In this document: in pieces, positions 7,576 through 19,555 of the stretch
How positions within the stretch are numbered: the stretch's first letter is position 1
How the letters are laid out: each line of letters begins with the position of its first letter
IMG/VR virus record: IMGVR_UViG_3300036719_002413
Length of the DNA stretch: 20,000 nucleotides
Strand: one strand, 5' to 3'
Source: an uncultured virus (IMG/VR IMGVR_UViG_3300036719_002413)
Lineage: Duplodnaviria > Heunggongvirae > Uroviricota > Caudoviricetes
Program-made: the position numbers and the translations under genes
The notes under the pieces: generated by a model
What the model was told of the DNA's origin: nothing
What the model saw: only the letters and a program-made list of their open reading frames with translations
The model's database searches: none

Positions 7576-9351
7576 CTAAATTTTTAATAATCTATCCCTA
7601 ACTTCCTTAAAGGTAGTTTGGTTATAGAATTTACCATTCTCATAGATTACTTGGAGTAAGCCTACTTCTTCTTGTTTAGGAGTACATTCTGTAAAAACTT
7701 TTATATCAGCATATTGATAATCTCCAGCCGAAGAAACATCTTGTACTTGTAATAACCCCTTCAAAGATTTCTTAGTACCATCATCAGTTACTGGATCTTT
7801 GTAGATGTTGTATGATTTTTTAACATTGTGAATATTTCCATCATCATCTGTCCAAGAATCTCCATTTTTAACTTCAAACCAAGCTCCTTTAGCAGCAAAT
7901 CCTAATGTATCTCTAGTAATGTATTGGTAAGTAAATGATCCTACACCTAATACAATGTTAGTAGAAGCAAAGCCTTTAGCAGCTAATCTCTCATATATTT
8001 GTCGTTGTCTATCAGGTGTAATACTATCACCATAGATTGCTCCAATATGAGGGTCTAATACTTTATAGCCCTGCTCATTAACAGTACCACCAAATATATC
8101 CCAAAGAAGTTCAATTACGCCTTTATCAGAAGGTTTCCAATCTAATTCTTCAACAGTAATTTTAGCTTCTTCATACATTTCTATAAAATAGTATTGTTTA
8201 TCATATCTATTCCATTGAATATTATGTATAGTAGCTTTATATAGCTTACCTCTTACTAAATAAATTTGTGTATATTCTGTTACTCCATATTCTCCGTGAG
8301 GTGTATTTTCTTTTACTTCTTCTAATAATGAATCTTTGAAATATTTAGGTAAAACATCTCCTTCTGGAAACCATTTAGTTAAGTCTTCATATTTAGTAGA
8401 AACACCACAAATAATATCAACAGGATCACCTGAATCAGGTCTAATTACTAATTTACCATCTCTAGCCATAATAGCTTCCTTGTTAGCTGGTAAATATTCA
8501 GTAATAAGTTTCCACAAATCAAATGTATCAGATACAATTGATAATATACCTTTAGGGAATAGTTTAATCCAATCAGCAATCATTTGATTCTCACCAACAG
8601 TAAATATCTTAGTAGTACTTACAGAGTGTTCTGATGCATTTACAGAATTAATAATAACTTCATCGTTAGGTTCATTATAGTAATATCTAGCAGCAGGTAT
8701 AGCTGCTAATGTATCACTACCTCTGAATGATGTAGCATGACCTAATCCTACACTTATCATATCATATGGACCACTCAATCCTCTAGCAGAGAAATCATGA
8801 CACATATAATCTACTAACCATAAGTTTTTAGGATCAGTCTTAGTTACCCACTCTTCAGCTTGTCTTCGATATAACTTAGCAATAGTAGCTGCTGTAGAAG
8901 CTTTCCATGCTAAATTAGATACCATAGTTTCCATATAAAGAGTTAACCAAGCAAATCCATCAACTGTATTAATGAAGGTCATATGAGGAATATTAGGATC
9001 AGTTTCAATACCTTCAGGTAATGCTTTTACTTTTAAAGGTAAGTAACCTAAATGATGAAGTTCTAAAAAATGTCTATCATTATATTCCATTCCAAGATAT
9101 TTATTCATATCCTCTCCAAATTTTAAAGCACCTGATAAATTGAGATTAAAGAAATGTTCTTCAAACACATCATGAATATATTTCCAAGCTAATTGCTGAC
9201 CAAATGATACTATCTTAGTAATACCTTTAGGTGCATGTTTGGTACTTCTTGGAATCCACGTACCATATAATCTAGTAGTTCCAGGAGCTAACATAGCTTT
9301 GTGACCTACTTTATAACCATCTGTTAAATATAATGGGTTAATTGTAAACAT
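7576..9351 (-). CDS. Nicotinamide phosphoribosyltransferase-family enzyme (Nampt/NadV, or NARP1 Namat)
   Basis: TDGYKVGH, HDFSARG, GSDT, ASEHSV, SIVSDTFD, VIRPDSGDP, IYGDSIT, GVGSFTYQ, TRDT, KDPVTDDGTKKS. Confidence 0.93.
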   Translation of the reverse strand: MFTINPLYLTDGYKVGHKAMLAPGTTRLYGTWIPRSTKHAPKGITKIVSFGQQLAWKYIHDVFEEHFFNLNLSGALKFGEDMNKYLGMEYNDRHFLELHHLGYLPLKVKALPEGIETDPNIPHMTFINTVDGFAWLTLYMETMVSNLAWKASTAATIAKLYRRQAEEWVTKTDPKNLWLVDYMCHDFSARGLSGPYDMISVGLGHATSFRGSDTLAAIPAARYYYNEPNDEVIINSVNASEHSVSTTKIFTVGENQMIADWIKLFPKGILSIVSDTFDLWKLITEYLPANKEAIMARDGKLVIRPDSGDPVDIICGVSTKYEDLTKWFPEGDVLPKYFKDSLLEEVKENTPHGEYGVTEYTQIYLVRGKLYKATIHNIQWNRYDKQYYFIEMYEEAKITVEELDWKPSDKGVIELLWDIFGGTVNEQGYKVLDPHIGAIYGDSITPDRQRQIYERLAAKGFASTNIVLGVGSFTYQYITRDTLGFAAKGAWFEVKNGDSWTDDDGNIHNVKKSYNIYKDPVTDDGTKKSLKGLLQVQDVSSAGDYQYADIKVFTECTPKQEEVGLLQVIYENGKFYNQTTFKEVRDRLLKI

Positions 9352-11232: not shown

Positions 11233-12147
11233 TTAGAATATATTTAATTGTTTAACTAAATCTGAATCATAATCATCACCTGGTTTAATATCTTTGTAAC
11301 TATTAGTACAGTAAATACCATTAAAATACTTTGAAAGAGTTTCAAATCCCTTAGAAAATATACCATGAGTTACTATGAGATAAATTTTAGATTTACATCC
11401 TCTATCTTTAAAAGCTTTAGTAATATTAATAAATGTTGCTCCCCCATCACAAATATCATCTATAATAATAATATCTTGTTTGTTTATTGAATCTTTTAAT
11501 AATCCAGGAATTTCAACTTTATTTAATTTACCTTGTTCATCACGAGATTTACTACAAGTAATAATTTCTCCTTTATAACCTATTTTTTCAGCTATTTTGT
11601 AGATTTTCTTACTTGCTCCAGCGTCAGGAGATACTAGAATATGTCGATGTTCTAATCTTTTTAAAGTAGAATAATTTCCATATAAAGAATCTAAAGCAAA
11701 AGTAACTAAACGTCCATTATTTTCCTTCTTAAAGTTATTTAAGCAAGCTTCTAATACATCAGAATGAGGATCTAATACAGTAACAGAATCAAATTCAAGA
11801 CTATTAATAATAGGACAGATAATATCTTTAAGATAATTATTACTACCACTTTCAAACTGTCTATCTGATCTAGCACCTAAAAAATATGGTGTATAAAGAT
11901 GAATTTCTTTAACACCTAAGTTTCTAAGTGATTTAGTAGCGCAGATAATGAGTTCAAGATCTGTAAAGGTATTTAAACGTGCTTTGATTTGAATAGAAAA
12001 TTTTGATATATGTCTATCTAAACTTTCATCAGTTTTTCCATCAAACCATATTCTATTAATAACAACCTGTTGTTGACCATCAGGGAATTTATCTACCCTG
12101 TATTTTATATCTGATTTCTCAGGATATGCTAAGTTTAGTGTTTTCAT
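11233..12147 (-). CDS. Ribose-phosphate pyrophosphokinase-family enzyme (Prs, or NARP1 Adps)
   Basis: FPDGQ, PYFLGARSDR, LDPHS, SPDAGA, KSRD, IIDDICDGGATF, VTHGIFS, TNS. Confidence 0.92.
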   Translation of the reverse strand: MKTLNLAYPEKSDIKYRVDKFPDGQQQVVINRIWFDGKTDESLDRHISKFSIQIKARLNTFTDLELIICATKSLRNLGVKEIHLYTPYFLGARSDRQFESGSNNYLKDIICPIINSLEFDSVTVLDPHSDVLEACLNNFKKENNGRLVTFALDSLYGNYSTLKRLEHRHILVSPDAGASKKIYKIAEKIGYKGEIITCSKSRDEQGKLNKVEIPGLLKDSINKQDIIIIDDICDGGATFINITKAFKDRGCKSKIYLIVTHGIFSKGFETLSKYFNGIYCTNSYKDIKPGDDYDSDLVKQLNIF

Positions 12148-12282: not shown

Positions 12283-12870
12283 TTATTCTTTAGGTGTTCC
12301 GTGTCTAGTCTCTACACCTTCTGTATTATTACAGCTTGGCTCGGTATTAGCAGTAAAGCTTTCACCGAATTTACGGAATTCTACATCTCGCTTTTCAGCA
12401 AGTGCACTCAATTTGTTTTTTCCCTTATGCGTATCAGTTAAAGCATGACAATTTGGACATAAAATTAATAAATTTGAAAGTTCGTGATTTAAATTATCTC
12501 CATCTTTATGGTGTAATTCTAATGGAATTTTTACACCTAACCATTCTGTAGATAAGCAATTTTCACAAATTTCTTTTTTTATACCCTCTTTGAATAACCT
12601 AAGTTTTAATTTATAAATAGAAAGATAATTAGAATTTTTAACTAGAATTTCTTCTAATGCTTGCGCCTTTTTAGGTACAAATTTTAATCCAACATTCCAT
12701 CCCTTACCCGTAAAATGTGAGGTATTTATTTCTAATAACTTAAGTTTATACTTTAAAGTTTTAAAATTACCGCCAGAGGGTCTTATAGAAAGACTTCTAC
12801 AAACACCTGCTAATGATAAATTAATACGTACAGCTTCTTCTAATTGTTCTTTTGTAAATTTGTATCTCAT
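12283..12870 (-). CDS. Intron-encoded HNH homing endonuclease
   Basis: CENC...LELHHKDGDNLNHELSNLLILCPNCH (HNH plus Zn-binding Cys pairs). ATG at 12870 (MRYKFTKEQL) is preferred over the track's TTG at 12951 because it lies downstream of the internal promoter. Confidence 0.88.
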   Translation of the reverse strand: MRYKFTKEQLEEAVRINLSLAGVCRSLSIRPSGGNFKTLKYKLKLLEINTSHFTGKGWNVGLKFVPKKAQALEEILVKNSNYLSIYKLKLRLFKEGIKKEICENCLSTEWLGVKIPLELHHKDGDNLNHELSNLLILCPNCHALTDTHKGKNKLSALAEKRDVEFRKFGESFTANTEPSCNNTEGVETRHGTPKE

Positions 12871-12886
12871 ATGTAAAAAGTTTACA

Positions 12887-12918
12887 CAAAAATACAAAAA
12901 TATTTCACGATTACCAAA
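12887..12918 (-). promoter_or_regulatory. Bacteroidota-type housekeeping sigma promoter inside the intron, upstream of the HNH gene
   Basis: TTTG (12918-12915), 20-nt spacer, TATTTTTG (12894-12887), matching the -33/-7 consensus TTTG-N19-21-TAnnTTTG; 16 nt before the ATG. Confidence 0.7.
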
Positions 12919-13076
12919 CATATTAGAAAATAAATGTATACTGATACTCAATAAGTTAGTTATAAGTCCTGCGTGTCTACCTATTTCACCACCTGAGCAT
13001 TAATAACAGGCTTAACCTACCTGTCATGAGTACCTATTTAAGCTATTAAGAGCAGTACAAGTGTATACACATATGA

Positions 13077-15718: not shown

Positions 15719-15761
15719 ATCAATATTACGTTAGTCATGATTTTAAATTTTAAATGTTTAG

Positions 15762-15836
15762 TAGATCTGAAAGGAATCGAACCTTTATCCTAGGCTTACT
15801 AGAGTCCCCCTGCTCTACCAATTGAGCTACAGATCT
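15762..15836 (-). tRNA. tRNA with aberrant anticodon arm (possible CUA anticodon, or pseudo-tRNA)
   Basis: Perfect AGATCTG/CAGATCT acceptor, GCTC-AATTGGTA-GAGC D arm and AAAGG-TTCGATT-CCTTT T arm. The middle AGGGGGACTCTAGTAAGCCTAGGAT is 2 nt too long and pairs poorly. Confidence 0.7.
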
Positions 15837-15841
15837 ATTTG

Positions 15842-16172
15842 TGGACCCGGTGGAAGTCGAATCCACGTCCTAGTTAAATTTATAAGATTACGATATACAT
15901 GTTTAGTTGATTACAACCATTTGGGGTCTTAACTCATGACAAGAGATAAGGCCGCTCCACCAGTGTATTTTTAAGTTATACACAAACTAGAAATTATACC
16001 AGAACTTCTACTGGTTCAGCGATATTAGCTTCAATATGAGCCATTACATCGTTGAAGGTGGTGTTTGAAAGATTGTTGTCATTTCAAGTATAACGATCTG
16101 TTTTAGGTGAGTATCATCAAATCACCACATGCGTACTCTTACAATATTTACTAGTCGATACCTGGCGGGCCC
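15842..16172 (-). ncRNA. ssrA: tmRNA
   Basis: 5' GGGCCCG...TCGAC and 3' GGAC-GTGGA-TTCGACT-TCCAC-CGGGTCC-A, with G3-U70 alanine identity and a long helix 2 (CTAG...TAAG / CTTA...CTAG). Length 331 nt. Internal ORF after AAAT: DNNLSNTTFNDVMAHIEANIAEPVEVLV* (16080-15994). Confidence 0.93.
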
Positions 16173-16386: not shown

Positions 16387-16546
16387 TTTCCCTCCTTTGT
16401 TTTTTAACAATTTCAGCAATGTTAACAACACCGTACATAAAAAATATAACGCCTATTGGTAAGGCAAGTACATTGTTAGGTACGAAATATCCTAATACAG
16501 GTAATGCTATGATTACCATTAGGACTACTAATAAGTTTTTTTTCAT
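16331..16546 (-). CDS. Small two-TM membrane protein
   Basis: 71 aa with two hydrophobic helices; TTAAAA leader. Confidence 0.7.
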   Translation of the reverse strand: MKKNLLVVLMVIIALPVLGYFVPNNVLALPIGVIFFMYGVVNIAEIVKKQRRENEQDIKSVRYDYECYGHE

Positions 16547-17105
16547 TTGACTTGAGTTTTAATAAAGGGTAGACATTCGGGATTCATATATCAGTGAATT
16601 TATGTATGCCTACCCTTTAAATTAAATTATGTTTCAACTTGTTGTATGAGAACCAATTAACTCATACTTTAAACTCTCCAAACTTACTTGTTGAGTTATA
16701 AAGAACATTATGGTTTTTACACGGAATTTATGTCTATTTATCTATAGTTTAAGTTACCTATTAACATGTAATAAGTAATCTCATGTACGGGCTACGCTCC
16801 GTGCGTTACCTATCCACCTTAAACCGACTATCGCGTGTATAATTACGGTTAAATGAGTAATGTTGTGTATGTCTTAGGTAAATTAATACTAGATGTACCA
16901 TAAACAACACACAATATCCTAAGTTAATCATCATAGTTATATGGTGTTAAACAGTTCATAATAGAGATAGCTTAAAGGACTATCTATGAGGACTAATACT
17001 CTAAGAGTACTAGAACACCTTTTGTTCTCATTACGTATTTCTCACAGCCTAATTACGCTTTTACAAGACGCCACAAGCGCCTTAATTAGGATTATGAGTG
17101 TGAGT

Positions 17106-17255
17106 CTAATTAGCGCTAATTGGTATTAGTGCTATATTAATGCTAGTACTCCCTAATCTACCAATTGGTCCAAATATTTTATTGAAGCACCAACCAGTTT
17201 TATAGTATACTACTTCCTGTAATATACTATTAGTAGCTCTAAATGTTTTAGTCAT
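17106..17255 (-). CDS. 49-aa small protein (not in ORF track)
   Basis: MTKTFRATNSILQEVVYYKTGWCFNKIFGPIGRLGSTSINIALIPISAN starts 5 nt after the upstream stop. Confidence 0.4.
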   Translation of the reverse strand: MTKTFRATNSILQEVVYYKTGWCFNKIFGPIGRLGSTSINIALIPISAN

Positions 17256-17260
17256 TGTTT

Positions 17261-17413
17261 TTATAAGATATGGTATAATATAACACTTATGACACCAAAT
17301 AGTAAGTACATGGTGTAATCTTCCTTAGATGTTTTTTGGTAATCTGTAAGATATTTATCTGATAGACAAATAGTTAAACAGAATAATGCTACTATAAATA
17401 AGAATATATTCAT
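17261..17413 (-). CDS. 50-aa membrane peptide (not in ORF track)
   Basis: MNIFLFIVALFCLTICLSDKYLTDYQKTSKEDYTMYLLFGVISVILYHIL with TTAAAACCTTAAAATCATG leader like the other genes. Confidence 0.55.
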   Translation of the reverse strand: MNIFLFIVALFCLTICLSDKYLTDYQKTSKEDYTMYLLFGVISVILYHIL

Positions 17414-18100
17414 GATTTTAAGGTTTTAATTGTTAATACCTCTCTATCACCACAATAGAGCCGCACAATGTTGATACATACATTGCAGACTAGCCCCAAT
17501 GTAAGAACAACTACTACAATCATATTACTATGATTGAGGCACAGGGACGATAAGGAATAAGTAATAAACCTTAAAGTTTATGCTGCCACCATCATTGTTA
17601 TTTAGGTTATTAATCAGCACAATAATTAAATTACTATCCGATATTCTTTCACAATGACTTTATATCTTCTACCTACTATTTGCTACAATATTTTTATGTA
17701 GTTGGTATAGAGTATTCTAACTGTTTTGTAATAGGTAAATTGTTTATGGTCACTTATACCACTAACTAAGTATGTAGGATTGAATACCTACTATGTTCAA
17801 TTAATTTTGTATCCTATTACAAAACAATTAGATATGAGAATGATATTTGTGTTGTTAGTGGTAATACATCTTAAACTACTGAAATCCATTTCTCTTTCTC
17901 AAGGAGAAACAACACAATTTGTAGTATAAATAACTTACGATTACCTTTAAACGTATTACCAATCTTGATAAGGATATAATTGGATTATTTATTACTACAA
18001 CTTTTTATGTGAATTATAAACCTGATATTTAGTGGTAGAGAACTACATAAATAGAATTCACAAAGGTAAATATCCAACCTATTTCTTTACTAATTAATTA

Positions 18101-18234
18101 CCCCTCTGCACTCAGTTGTAATACTTCAGGAGCTTCACCTGCCTTCTAGTATACTTGTACTTCTCAGTTAAGAGTCAGTACGAGCTTTCTTACTTTGTAG
18201 TACAACTGCTCACCCGAAGGTTAGTGCAAAAGGA
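18101..18234 (-). repeat. Structured repeat module, copy B
   Basis: Shares 22-nt ccctctgcactcagttgtaata (18102-18123 = 18667-18688) and tacaactgct(c/a)accc (18201-18215 vs 18764-18778) with copy A; internal CAGTTGTA/TACAACTG stem. Confidence 0.85.
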
Positions 18235-18278
18235 AATTAAGTTCAGGTTTGATGTGATCTCCCCTAAACTCAATGTTG

Positions 18279-18446
18279 TTAACACTCATTTGATTGATTT
18301 TCTAAACCATTAAGCTCACATTCGTTTTTTAAATCTTGTAAATCTTCAGCTTTTTTTAAAGCCCATTTTAAAATACTTACTAATTCATCAATATCTTTAC
18401 CATCTCTGTTTATAGTATAGATTATGTGCTCTTTTAATTTATCCAT
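18279..18446 (-). CDS. 55-aa small protein (not in ORF track)
   Basis: MDKLKEHIIYTINRDGKDIDELVSILKWALKKAEDLQDLKNECELNGLENQSNEC with AAAACAAAATG leader. Confidence 0.6.
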   Translation of the reverse strand: MDKLKEHIIYTINRDGKDIDELVSILKWALKKAEDLQDLKNECELNGLENQSNEC

Positions 18447-18666
18447 TTTGTTTTACATTTTTACAACTTACCAGTTATTTGTTATTTTACAACACACTTT
18501 AATATAGGTAGTGTTGATTACCTAATTTCAATAGTTTATTCTATTTTACCCCCCTACACTGGGAAGTAGAAATGGTGCATTACAGAGTTTATGATATTTC
18601 TATCAACCACCACTCTAAGGACTGATTCTAATGTTTATAGTCTAATAATCAGTTAAATTTGGACTT

Positions 18667-18945
18667 CCCTCTGCACTCAGTTGTAATATAGTTTTCACAA
18701 AACATGGCTTTACATATCACTATGATATGATGGTCTTCACCTCATGATGTTTGTCACTATTATTACAACTGCTAACCCTTGGGAGCTGATTAAGTAAGAC
18801 TTACGTTATTGCTAACTGCGAGTTAATCAGGTAGTTTCACATCTTAGGGGCATCTCTTCGACGGTTATTTTACATTTCCCTACAGAGGCATTACTGCTTG
18901 TTTTTTCTAAGAAGTCTTTATATCTACGTGAGTTGTGGTGCATTA
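18667..18945 (-). ncRNA. Twister-ribozyme-like RNA with large inserted helices (repeat copy A)
   Basis: Ordered elements UAA-UGCA-CC (18945-18937), UCCC-AA-GG (18784-18777) and UGCA-GA-GGG (18675-18667) mirror the twister L1/P2/T2/L4/T1 pattern. P1 is weak. Confidence 0.45.
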
Positions 18946-19198
18946 ATAGTAGAGTTTCACTTCGCTTTATATCTCTACTAAACCCCGCTTCTAGGGCTTA
19001 ATTAAGTTTCTGGTGTAGGTGGACGTTTTCATCTCCTAATTGACCAGATTAATAGGGATAGTTTTACCTATTTTCAACAGTTTGATTACTGTCATTGAGA
19101 TCCTAACTACCATTAGGATGTTTAACTCTCTGTTATACCCAACCGCTACAGTGCTTAAAGCCCTTAGTCTCGGTCGGGTGGTAGCTCATTTGTATTTA

Positions 19199-19555
19199 CT
19201 AATAACCAGCAGCTATTGCATCATTTATCATGTGCATTACTCTGTCTTTTATTTCTTTCTCAGTATATGGTTTATAACACTCTGAATTATTAATGTGAGA
19301 ACCATCCATACTGAAATTATAACCAAGCTTATCTTTTAAGAATTTAGCTGTTAATTCCCTAGCACCATACCCATCACCCGCTACTGCTTTACAAGGCTCA
19401 GTCATACTCTTTGATTTATTGAAATGCATATTGATATGACCTAGGAAACAACAGTTTCCCACCTTATCAACAAACTTATGAGCAATGAATTGCTCTTTAG
19501 GTATAGGCTCAATGATCTCTTTGATCTGAGTGAAATTAGTGATTTTGTAGCTCAT
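19199..19555 (-). CDS. Hypothetical phage protein
   Basis: MSYKITNFTQ...CCFLGH...; ATG at 19555 preferred because the track's upstream extension runs through a terminator hairpin. Confidence 0.75.
   Translation of the reverse strand: MSYKITNFTQIKEIIEPIPKEQFIAHKFVDKVGNCCFLGHINMHFNKSKSMTEPCKAVAGDGYGARELTAKFLKDKLGYNFSMDGSHINNSECYKPYTEKEIKDRVMHMINDAIAAGY

Follow-up and report, generated by a model that had tools for sequence, protein, structure and literature searches.

Twister-type elements and a large structured RNA in a probable non-coding RNA cassette of an uncultured phage

Results and Discussion

Overview of the ORF-poor region

The window analysed here is a stretch of 20,000 nucleotides from an uncultured virus of the Caudoviricetes (IMG/VR record IMGVR_UViG_3300036719_002413). 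Within it, positions 16560–19195, a region poor in open reading frames (ORFs) that lies upstream of a cluster of transfer-messenger RNA (tmRNA) and tRNA genes, probably represent a non-coding RNA cassette on the gene (minus) strand, made up of two independent modules: elements of the twister ribozyme type and an RNA of ~650 nt. Both kinds of element exist, are conserved in other stretches of viral DNA and covary. A first-pass annotation had proposed either an array of small RNAs, ribozymes and processing sites or one large non-coding RNA; ribozyme-type elements and a large RNA turn out to be present together, but not as a continuous array. The inverted repeats that it listed can all be found, but they are of unequal weight. 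The pairs at 17714–17832 and 17441–17556 are helices of one and the same large RNA, while 18667–18945 is a complete twister-type element and 18101–18234 a twister-derived one. The elements of the two modules are as follows (loci in other stretches are given below by L numbers).

18949..18978, minus strand: accessory (P0-like) hairpin, from motif positions and the minimum free energy (MFE) structure of 18948–19085
18667..18945, minus strand: element A, complete expanded twister-type element (type 2), from covariance model R1 (53.0 bits, E = 4.9e-11) and motif map
18549..18582, minus strand: element C, truncated twister-type copy, from R1 (24.2 bits, E = 5e-4)
18101..18234, minus strand: element B, twister-derived three-way junction (type 3), from R1 (51.9 bits) and alignment with element A
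17436..18085, minus strand: large structured RNA of ~650 nt, from alignments, RNAalifold, pair counts and folding against shuffled sequence

A family of twister-type elements

Twister ribozymes are built from the stems P1, P2 and P4, with a loop L4 that pairs with L1 (T1) and L2 (T2), and carry a U-A cleavage site (PMC5408937, PMC6154101). The catalytic guanine is at the bottom of P2 (PMC5408937 Table 1; PMC6154101), and P0, P3 and P5 are optional stems, occurring in 21%, 78% and 1% of annotated twisters (PMC5408937, PMC6154101).

Two stretches of ~115 nt within the region are related to each other and have an 18-nt 3′ core in common, which is present in at least 121 viral stretches. This core served as a first probe, and fixes the 3′ half of the copies it recovers. 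The first sample of 114 unique copies contains 72 of type 1, in which a hairpin capped by a C-rich loop comes directly after the 5′ half, 22 type 2-like copies, which have the same design plus a large insertion ahead of the loop, and 7 of type 3, without such a loop; 7 more are unclear and 6 have too little upstream DNA. The 3′ half is common to all three designs, and the loop motif was found in 99 of the 114 copies. A second probe, consisting of L4 and the 5′ strand of P5, leaves P1, the cleavage site, both strands of P2 and the G-A-GGG free to vary. It gave at least 120 more viral stretches with 122 instances (111 unique rows), and from the 103 unique complete copies of this sample the 74 with a length of up to 175 nt were aligned.

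The covariation that the first-pass annotation had named as a check is strong, here as in the large RNA below. In the 74 copies, 99.3% of the paired cells can pair, as against 27.9–50.7% when the partners are slid by 1–3 columns, and the covariation score was reached by none of 500 shuffles. P4, where the L4 letters are fixed by the probe, shows double changes at 5/5 pairs (109 cells). P2, neither strand of which is fixed, has them at three of its five pairs (11 cells), and 99.5% of its cells pair. The presumed active-site positions are close to invariant: U-1 is U in 72/74 copies and A+1 is A in 73/74, both at probe-free positions, the guanine below P2 is G in 72/74 where the filter admitted A or G, and the loop CCC is complementary to the 3′ GGG in 73–74 of 74, the 3′ GG being partly fixed by the filter. 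The C after P2 and the loop GG never vary (74/74); the fifth pair of P2 covaries, leaving one C for T2. Type 2 copies carry an insertion of 85–261 nt in L4, and the architecture is kept in 21 of 26 type 2-like copies. Across this insertion 92 of 105 P4 cells pair, compared with 83.6 ± 2.6 in shuffles, only 6 in 1000 of which reach 92. The features agree with the published layout of the twister (PMC5408937 section 8 and Table 1; PMC6154101 section 2.1). Elements of the family probably self-cleave.

Copies in the window

The covariance model R1, built from the 74 aligned copies, finds exactly three gene-strand copies in the window (A 53.0, B 51.9 and C 24.2 bits), all inside the region. The next best matches, also inside it, are the reverse strand of the near-palindromic P5 of element A (23.8 bits) and a plus-strand match of 14.3 bits; nothing outside the region exceeds 13 bits.

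Element A has U-1 at 18945 and A+1 at 18944, with predicted cleavage between the two, followed by P2, P4, a long P5 whose tip varies and, on the 3′ side, G-A-GGG. A domain of ~130 nt with two hairpins is inserted on the 5′ side of L4, and the 5′ half is located 161 nt before the loop. The accessory hairpin at 18949–18978 ends 3 nt before the predicted cleavage-site U, and the same hairpin stands ahead of type 1 copies in L089 and other loci. Sequence close to this site is shared with several relatives (88–95% identity to L089, L054 and L023 over 19002–18928), and further upstream 30 nt at 19043–19014 are identical in L049. In an accessory motif that recurs in the window, an A/U-rich strand with AAAG at its end faces GUGAAA. 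The motif occurs on the minus strand at 18978–18949 (the hairpin before element A), at 18923–18831 (the L4 insertion of type 2 elements) and, in variant form, at 17665–17640 within the large RNA. These three places may have a tertiary module in common.

Element B retains the base of P5 and the 3′ strand as in a twister-type element. With its G-A-GGG paired to an upstream C/U-rich strand in a continuous helix of ~11 bp, and with neither a U-A site before P2 nor a CCC loop, it would not be expected to cleave in the canonical way. Element C consists of U-A-A, P2, a 15-nt loop with CCC and then a run of G, with no P4 or P5. This form was seen again only in a contig identical to the window, so that a remnant is the simplest explanation and the probable one; a recurrent minimal form was considered and discarded on the same observation. 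The idea that C and B together form one split, switchable twister was likewise rejected: an orphan 5′ half upstream of a type 3 element is found only in the window and in L007, and is missing from the contig of L014/L015 and from L017, L022 and L059. Two public contigs identical to parts of the window stop at window positions 11279 and 18517, and contribute no covariation information. The second of these ends is ~30 nt from element C, and repeated elements may be breaking assemblies here.

Ribozymes or structured leaders

Several results argue against a set of working twister ribozymes. The positions of T1 and T2 never vary, which makes the two pseudoknots compatible with the data and nothing beyond that. 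P1 was not detected: the longest complementary run between a copy's own flanks averages 4.64, as against 4.56 ± 0.13 for mismatched flanks. The Rfam twister models (RF03160 for type P1) match neither the window at E up to 10 nor 40 loci at gathering thresholds, and they are silent at E up to 10 on short stretches holding compact copies, one of them the 141 nt that surround the most compact copy. P4 of element A has one mismatch. The whole element folds no better than its shuffles (z −0.85, from MFE against shuffled sequence), and its MFE structure misses P2 and P4. At most one of the three window copies could cleave canonically, given that B has no cleavage site and C has no P4 or P5.

The missing Rfam scores and the undetected P1 would suit a different account, in which the elements resemble the twister core without being ribozymes and serve instead as conserved structured leaders, or in protein binding or regulation. 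Many copies are situated 40–50 nt upstream of a start codon, as judged by eye in the flanks, and the type 3 derivative retains P5 and the 3′ strand while dropping the cleavage site. It is, however, unlikely. The most conserved parts of the family are the U-A, the G below P2, the loop CCC and the 3′ GGG, while the stems covary. P1, although phylogenetically conserved in twisters, is reported to be dispensable for their activity (PMC5408937). Finally, other self-cleaving ribozymes occur close by: Rfam hatchet matches (76.6–81.1 bits, gathering score 51) are found in 4 of 20 loci, 0.9–1.5 kb upstream of the twister-type element and on the same strand.

L003:1779-1911: hatchet ribozyme (Rfam)
L007:1409-1546: hatchet ribozyme (Rfam)
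L017:1961-2099: hatchet ribozyme (Rfam)
L031:1849-2011: hatchet ribozyme (Rfam)

A sub-threshold RAGATH-1 hammerhead at L084:298-383 adjoins a type 3 element. Rfam scans of the window and 48 loci, at gathering and permissive thresholds, gave only tRNAs, tmRNA, hatchet and this one hammerhead. The region itself yields no credible Rfam family even at E up to 10. The earlier statement that no known family is present therefore holds for Rfam models, but it overlooks three elements with the architecture of the twister class.

A large structured RNA

The second module, at 17436–18085, begins with a 5′ domain closed by a covarying helix that is changed on both sides in two sequences. A helix of ~20 bp with a variable tip follows, and then a 3′ domain in which individual pairs of a GNRA-capped hairpin have as many as 7 double changes. 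In the terminal hairpin the stem changes at 6/6 pairs, while the loop, GUGG, is conserved to at least 90%; the 3′ domain also has a second UGGUGG. Other RNAs, whether further copies of the molecule or the 3′ ends of tRNAs, could make contact at the loop and at this second motif.

In 9 viral stretches the conserved blocks are collinear and the helix tips vary. Matches were also found in 32 metagenome stretches, 10 of them with at least three further blocks and several with one or two. About 20 relatives from phages or metagenomes were confirmed. In prokaryotic genomes there are 11 matches to the core block, all lacking every other block and attributable to chance. A 16-mer probe gave 34 matches. 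Agreement with the window extends past the probe only in L142, L145 and L166, and the remaining matches are apparently due to chance.

The structure was derived from 14 complete or nearly complete copies, one of them cut at the 5′ end of its contig. It has 85 pairs in 12 helices, with 90.3% of cells paired compared with 36.5–53.8% for slid partners, and double changes at 23 pairs compared with 7–14, a level that none of 500 shuffles reached. An independent RNAalifold analysis of 10 sequences gave 84 pairs, 17 of them compensatory. The RNA also folds better than shuffled sequence (z −3.82), so that in this control, likewise proposed by the first-pass annotation, the large RNA passed but the complete twister-type element did not. 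G-U cells outnumber A-C cells by 46 to 14, which favors the gene strand.

Copies are 646–909 nt long, or 1201–1387 nt with nested inserts, and at least two of them are flanked by tRNAs. In L175 and L213 there are tRNAs on both sides with a tRNA-Met directly 3′, in L202 a tRNA lies 360 nt downstream, and in the window the tmRNA/tRNA cluster follows 1.3 kb downstream. The contig of L213 contains three copies of the 5′ block, and in L201 an ORF for an HNH endonuclease of 178 aa is nested in a variable loop (L201:1773-2309).

The two modules are independent, since the 3′ end of a twister-type element is found within 320 nt upstream in just 2 of 22 copies of the large RNA (2 others, in which the 5′ landmark could not be located, were left out of the count). 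On these counts the notion that the twister-type element is an integral 5′ part of the large RNA was abandoned.

No Rfam family was matched by the large RNA, either in the window at E up to 10 or in seven relatives at E up to 1, although GOLLD, ROOL and intron families are all represented in Rfam; it belongs to a family absent from that database. Its existence and its class can be stated with moderate confidence.

Some findings pull the other way. The opposite strand of the large RNA folds almost as well (z −3.72). The structure rests on 14 complete sequences, helix 7 is only 75% paired among them, and three pairs are out of register in the window owing to a 1-nt indel. L193, a near relative that is 95–100% identical across the small ORFs and all downstream sequence, has retained just the 5′ domain and the long helix; the whole 3′ domain is gone, and a 440-nt replacement is found in L193. 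An independent contig shows the same skip. The 3′ domain is thus dispensable in L193.

Such differences in presence and extent among near relatives, together with the triplicated 5′ block in one contig and the nested HNH ORF of L201, are what might be expected of a self-splicing intron or an intron-derived mobile element. This origin is quite improbable, because no group I or group II model had a match at E up to 1, whether in the window or in seven relatives, the nested ORF is found in just 1/14 complete copies, and the flanks, instead of being conserved exons, vary with the locus between tRNAs, small ORFs that are not related to one another and a twister-type element.

That the region is decaying spacer DNA, or has a function at the DNA level (an origin or a recombination hotspot) with incidental hairpins, is very improbable: ~420 nt do fold like shuffled sequence, element C is a remnant, L193 carries its replacement, near-identical phage contigs break inside the window and the two strands of the large RNA are about equal in folding, but compensatory changes are spread across dozens of independent contigs, G-U cells exceed A-C cells (46:14 and 14:5) and the three twister-type copies are all on the gene strand.

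Transcription and a possible processing pathway

No terminator-like site was found on the gene strand inside 16560–19195, which suggests read-through transcription with the neighbouring genes. A sigma-70 promoter scan, which does not extend to promoters of the Bacteroidota type, gave 13 sites against 19.9 expected and is uninformative. In four RNA-library runs, the 5–12% of the region's words that were found represent assembled contigs of relatives, possibly DNA, and these cannot show expression, strand or ends.

In the cassette envisaged here, the region would be transcribed with its neighbours as a long precursor. Element A would cut itself between 18945 and 18944, parting the upstream message from the downstream RNAs, and the large RNA would then accumulate in a stable, folded form. 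In relatives, RNase P cleavage at the tRNA a few nt downstream could set its 3′ end. A processed, stable RNA of the ROOL/GOLLD kind is thus proposed with moderate confidence as to existence and class, and with low confidence as to this mechanism. It is possible, if somewhat doubtful, that the ~650-nt RNA represents a class of large, ornate phage RNA not described before. On this view it would have no sequence relationship with GOLLD or ROOL, would mature from a crAss-like tRNA/tmRNA precursor and would act as an autonomous RNA particle.

Small ORFs, hairpins and spacer

The remaining features of the region are all listed on the minus strand.

18979..19195, minus strand: leader between the upstream gene (stop near 19199) and element A, with moderately stable hairpins
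18279..18446, minus strand: ORF of 55 aa (ORF listing)
17261..17413, minus strand: hydrophobic ORF of 50 aa, orf50 (ORF listing)
17106..17255, minus strand: ORF of 49 aa, orf49 (ORF listing)
17041..17104, minus strand: hairpin just after orf49
16623..17040, minus strand: spacer without a sign of a credible gene or structure (fold controls)
16563..16619, minus strand: strong hairpin of 14 bp (inverted repeat I14), 14 nt upstream of the start of the next gene

The description of a 2.6-kb ORF-poor region in an otherwise dense genome is borne out. The longest ORF wholly within 16560–19195 has 55 aa, and the ORFs of at least 40 aa that overlap the region number eight on both strands, one of which (81 aa, plus strand) crosses the edge. 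Stop-codon recoding was rejected as the cause: reading TAG as Q or TGA as W (code 4) opened no frame of at least 60 aa inside the region, and reading TAA as Q gave only frames that need 3–8 read-through stops, none of them credible. The C-terminal 20–32 residues of the 55-aa ORF match L019, L024 and L070 (tblastn). With 94% amino-acid identity to L193 across 50 residues, orf50 is probably a real gene. The coding status of orf49, which shows 80% identity to L193 and a diverged C-terminus, is uncertain, as is that of a 42-aa frame.

Hairpin segments were compared with shuffled sequence. The hairpin at 16563–16619 (−21.4 kcal/mol, z −5.74) was equalled by none of 200 shuffles, and is kept in L193 except for one loop base; no U tract was found after it. 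That at 17041–17104 (z −2.55; 3/200 shuffles fold as well) is conserved in L193 with 3 substitutions. The two halves of the leader fold with z −3.01 (19085–19198) and z −2.35 (18948–19085). Elsewhere, folding did not rise above the shuffled level: z +0.10 for 16622–16770, +0.23 for 16779–16857, −0.79 for 16900–17040 and −0.12 for 18584–18666. The region had been described as tiled with structured elements. Its structured parts are real, but the wording overstates the case, as ~420 nt (16622–17040) gave no indication of structure in any test made. Counted against the cassette, this spacer (16623–17040) is not accounted for by any element. It is ~95% identical in L193 only, and none of the loci from the first motif scan (L003–L123) matches it.

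The phage and its genomic context

The proteins encoded in the window include a DNA polymerase, NAMPT, PRPP synthase and an HNH endonuclease. The closest deposited relatives of the polymerase are from crAss-like phages, at 27–32% identity, and the source is on this evidence an uncultured phage that appears to be distantly crAss-like. Its host is probably a member of the Bacteroidota. No nucleotide match to window positions 16500–19250 was found among deposited phages. NAMPT and PRPP synthase form a NAD-salvage pair at 7576–9351 and 11233–12147 (minus strand), and the HNH endonuclease of the same phage is at 12283–12951 (minus strand). The tRNA-Met, the tRNA-Arg, an odd tRNA and the tmRNA are all on the minus strand (ARAGORN, Rfam); the last two are located as follows.

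15841..16172, minus strand: tmRNA, downstream of the region (ARAGORN; Rfam tmRNA, 85 bits)
15761..15836, minus strand: odd tRNA, directly after the tmRNA (ARAGORN; Rfam tRNA, 53.8 bits)

ARAGORN reads an 8-nt anticodon loop (‘ctag’) in the odd tRNA, which could be amber-suppressor-like or a quadruplet decoder; recoding of TAG was not seen in the window. Among the relatives, some Rfam tRNAs are 86–117 nt long (L134:7318-7417 and 8321-8434; L096:326-425; L013:481-597; L213:1462-1566; L041:1723-1808; L034:4894-4979). ARAGORN, run for L134 only, gave none over the same DNA. In L041 and L034 there are inserts of 30 and 22 nt in the anticodon arm, and the long forms may be expanded or intron-bearing phage tRNAs.

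Significance

No description of the twister-type family or of the large RNA was found in the literature. The main text of Fremin et al. 2023 (PMC10690425) mentions no twister, ribozyme or GOLLD, and six contig identifiers are absent from its supplements, which are only partly searchable and whose unnamed candidates may still include both motifs. Uncultured phages carry the twister-type family very often (each probe found it in more than 120 contigs, a lower bound). It is missed by the standard catalogue, so that phage annotation and counts of natural ribozymes underestimate it. Should cleavage be confirmed, the large P5, the L4 insertions and the missing P1 would stretch the definition of a twister. 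ROOL and GOLLD represent the few known classes of large structured RNA that phages carry close to tRNA islands, and recent work showed that the two self-assemble. If real, a further class unrelated to these, from another phage lineage, would offer an independent handle on the function of large RNAs. Natural variants are at hand, as the 3′ domain is missing from one relative, an endonuclease gene is nested in one copy and some copies have tRNAs on both sides.

Comparison with known systems

The family and twisters of type P1 (Roth et al. 2014, via PMC5408937 and PMC6154101) follow the same order of elements: U-A site, P2, P4 with a C-rich loop, optional P5, 3′ strand of P2 and G-A-GGG. Further points of likeness are the covariation of P2 and P4, the conserved cleavage-site A and guanine below P2, the complementarity of the loop CCC to the 3′ GGG and the presence of other self-cleaving ribozymes nearby. 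Unlike twisters, the family has no P3 (found in 78% of them) and no detectable P1; a large P5 is present in every aligned copy, whereas only 1% of annotated twisters have one, and type 2 carries a domain of 85–261 nt in L4. Hatchet and hammerhead ribozymes near phage genes have been suggested to process polycistronic transcripts, to a purpose that the source leaves unresolved (PMC6765202). Like the twister-type elements they are intergenic in phage operons, and hatchet co-occurs in 4/20 loci, but the fold of the twister-type elements differs and the window has no match to hatchet or hammerhead.

Group I introns with homing-endonuclease genes resemble the large RNA in having many helices and variable loops, one of which holds an HNH ORF in L201. 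The large RNA differs from them in having no Rfam intron match and no conserved exons, being intergenic or flanked by tRNAs.

ROOL and GOLLD are phage RNAs near tRNA islands, with functions described as unknown; the solved ROOL has 659 nt, and GOLLD has more than 800 nt, with a 3′ region that is universally conserved, the solved example having been identified downstream of a Met-tRNA (PMC12286853). A likeness to these RNAs had been suggested in the first-pass annotation. The setting is indeed alike, ~1.3 kb upstream of the tmRNA/tRNA cluster, but by the Rfam models the large RNA is not a member of either family. Like ROOL, the large RNA is phage-encoded, ~650 nt long, multi-helix and located beside tRNAs (PMC12286853); it differs in giving no match to the Rfam ROOL family and in coming from lake and wastewater phage contigs. 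Compared with GOLLD it is shorter (646–909 nt without nested inserts) and gives no Rfam GOLLD match, and its 3′ domain can be absent, as in L193, whereas the 3′ region of GOLLD is universally conserved. It shares with GOLLD a position near tRNA islands (PMC12286853), and in L175 and L213 a tRNA-Met comes directly after the large RNA. In kind it is similar to both, being phage-encoded, large, supported by covariation and adjacent to tRNAs in its relatives.

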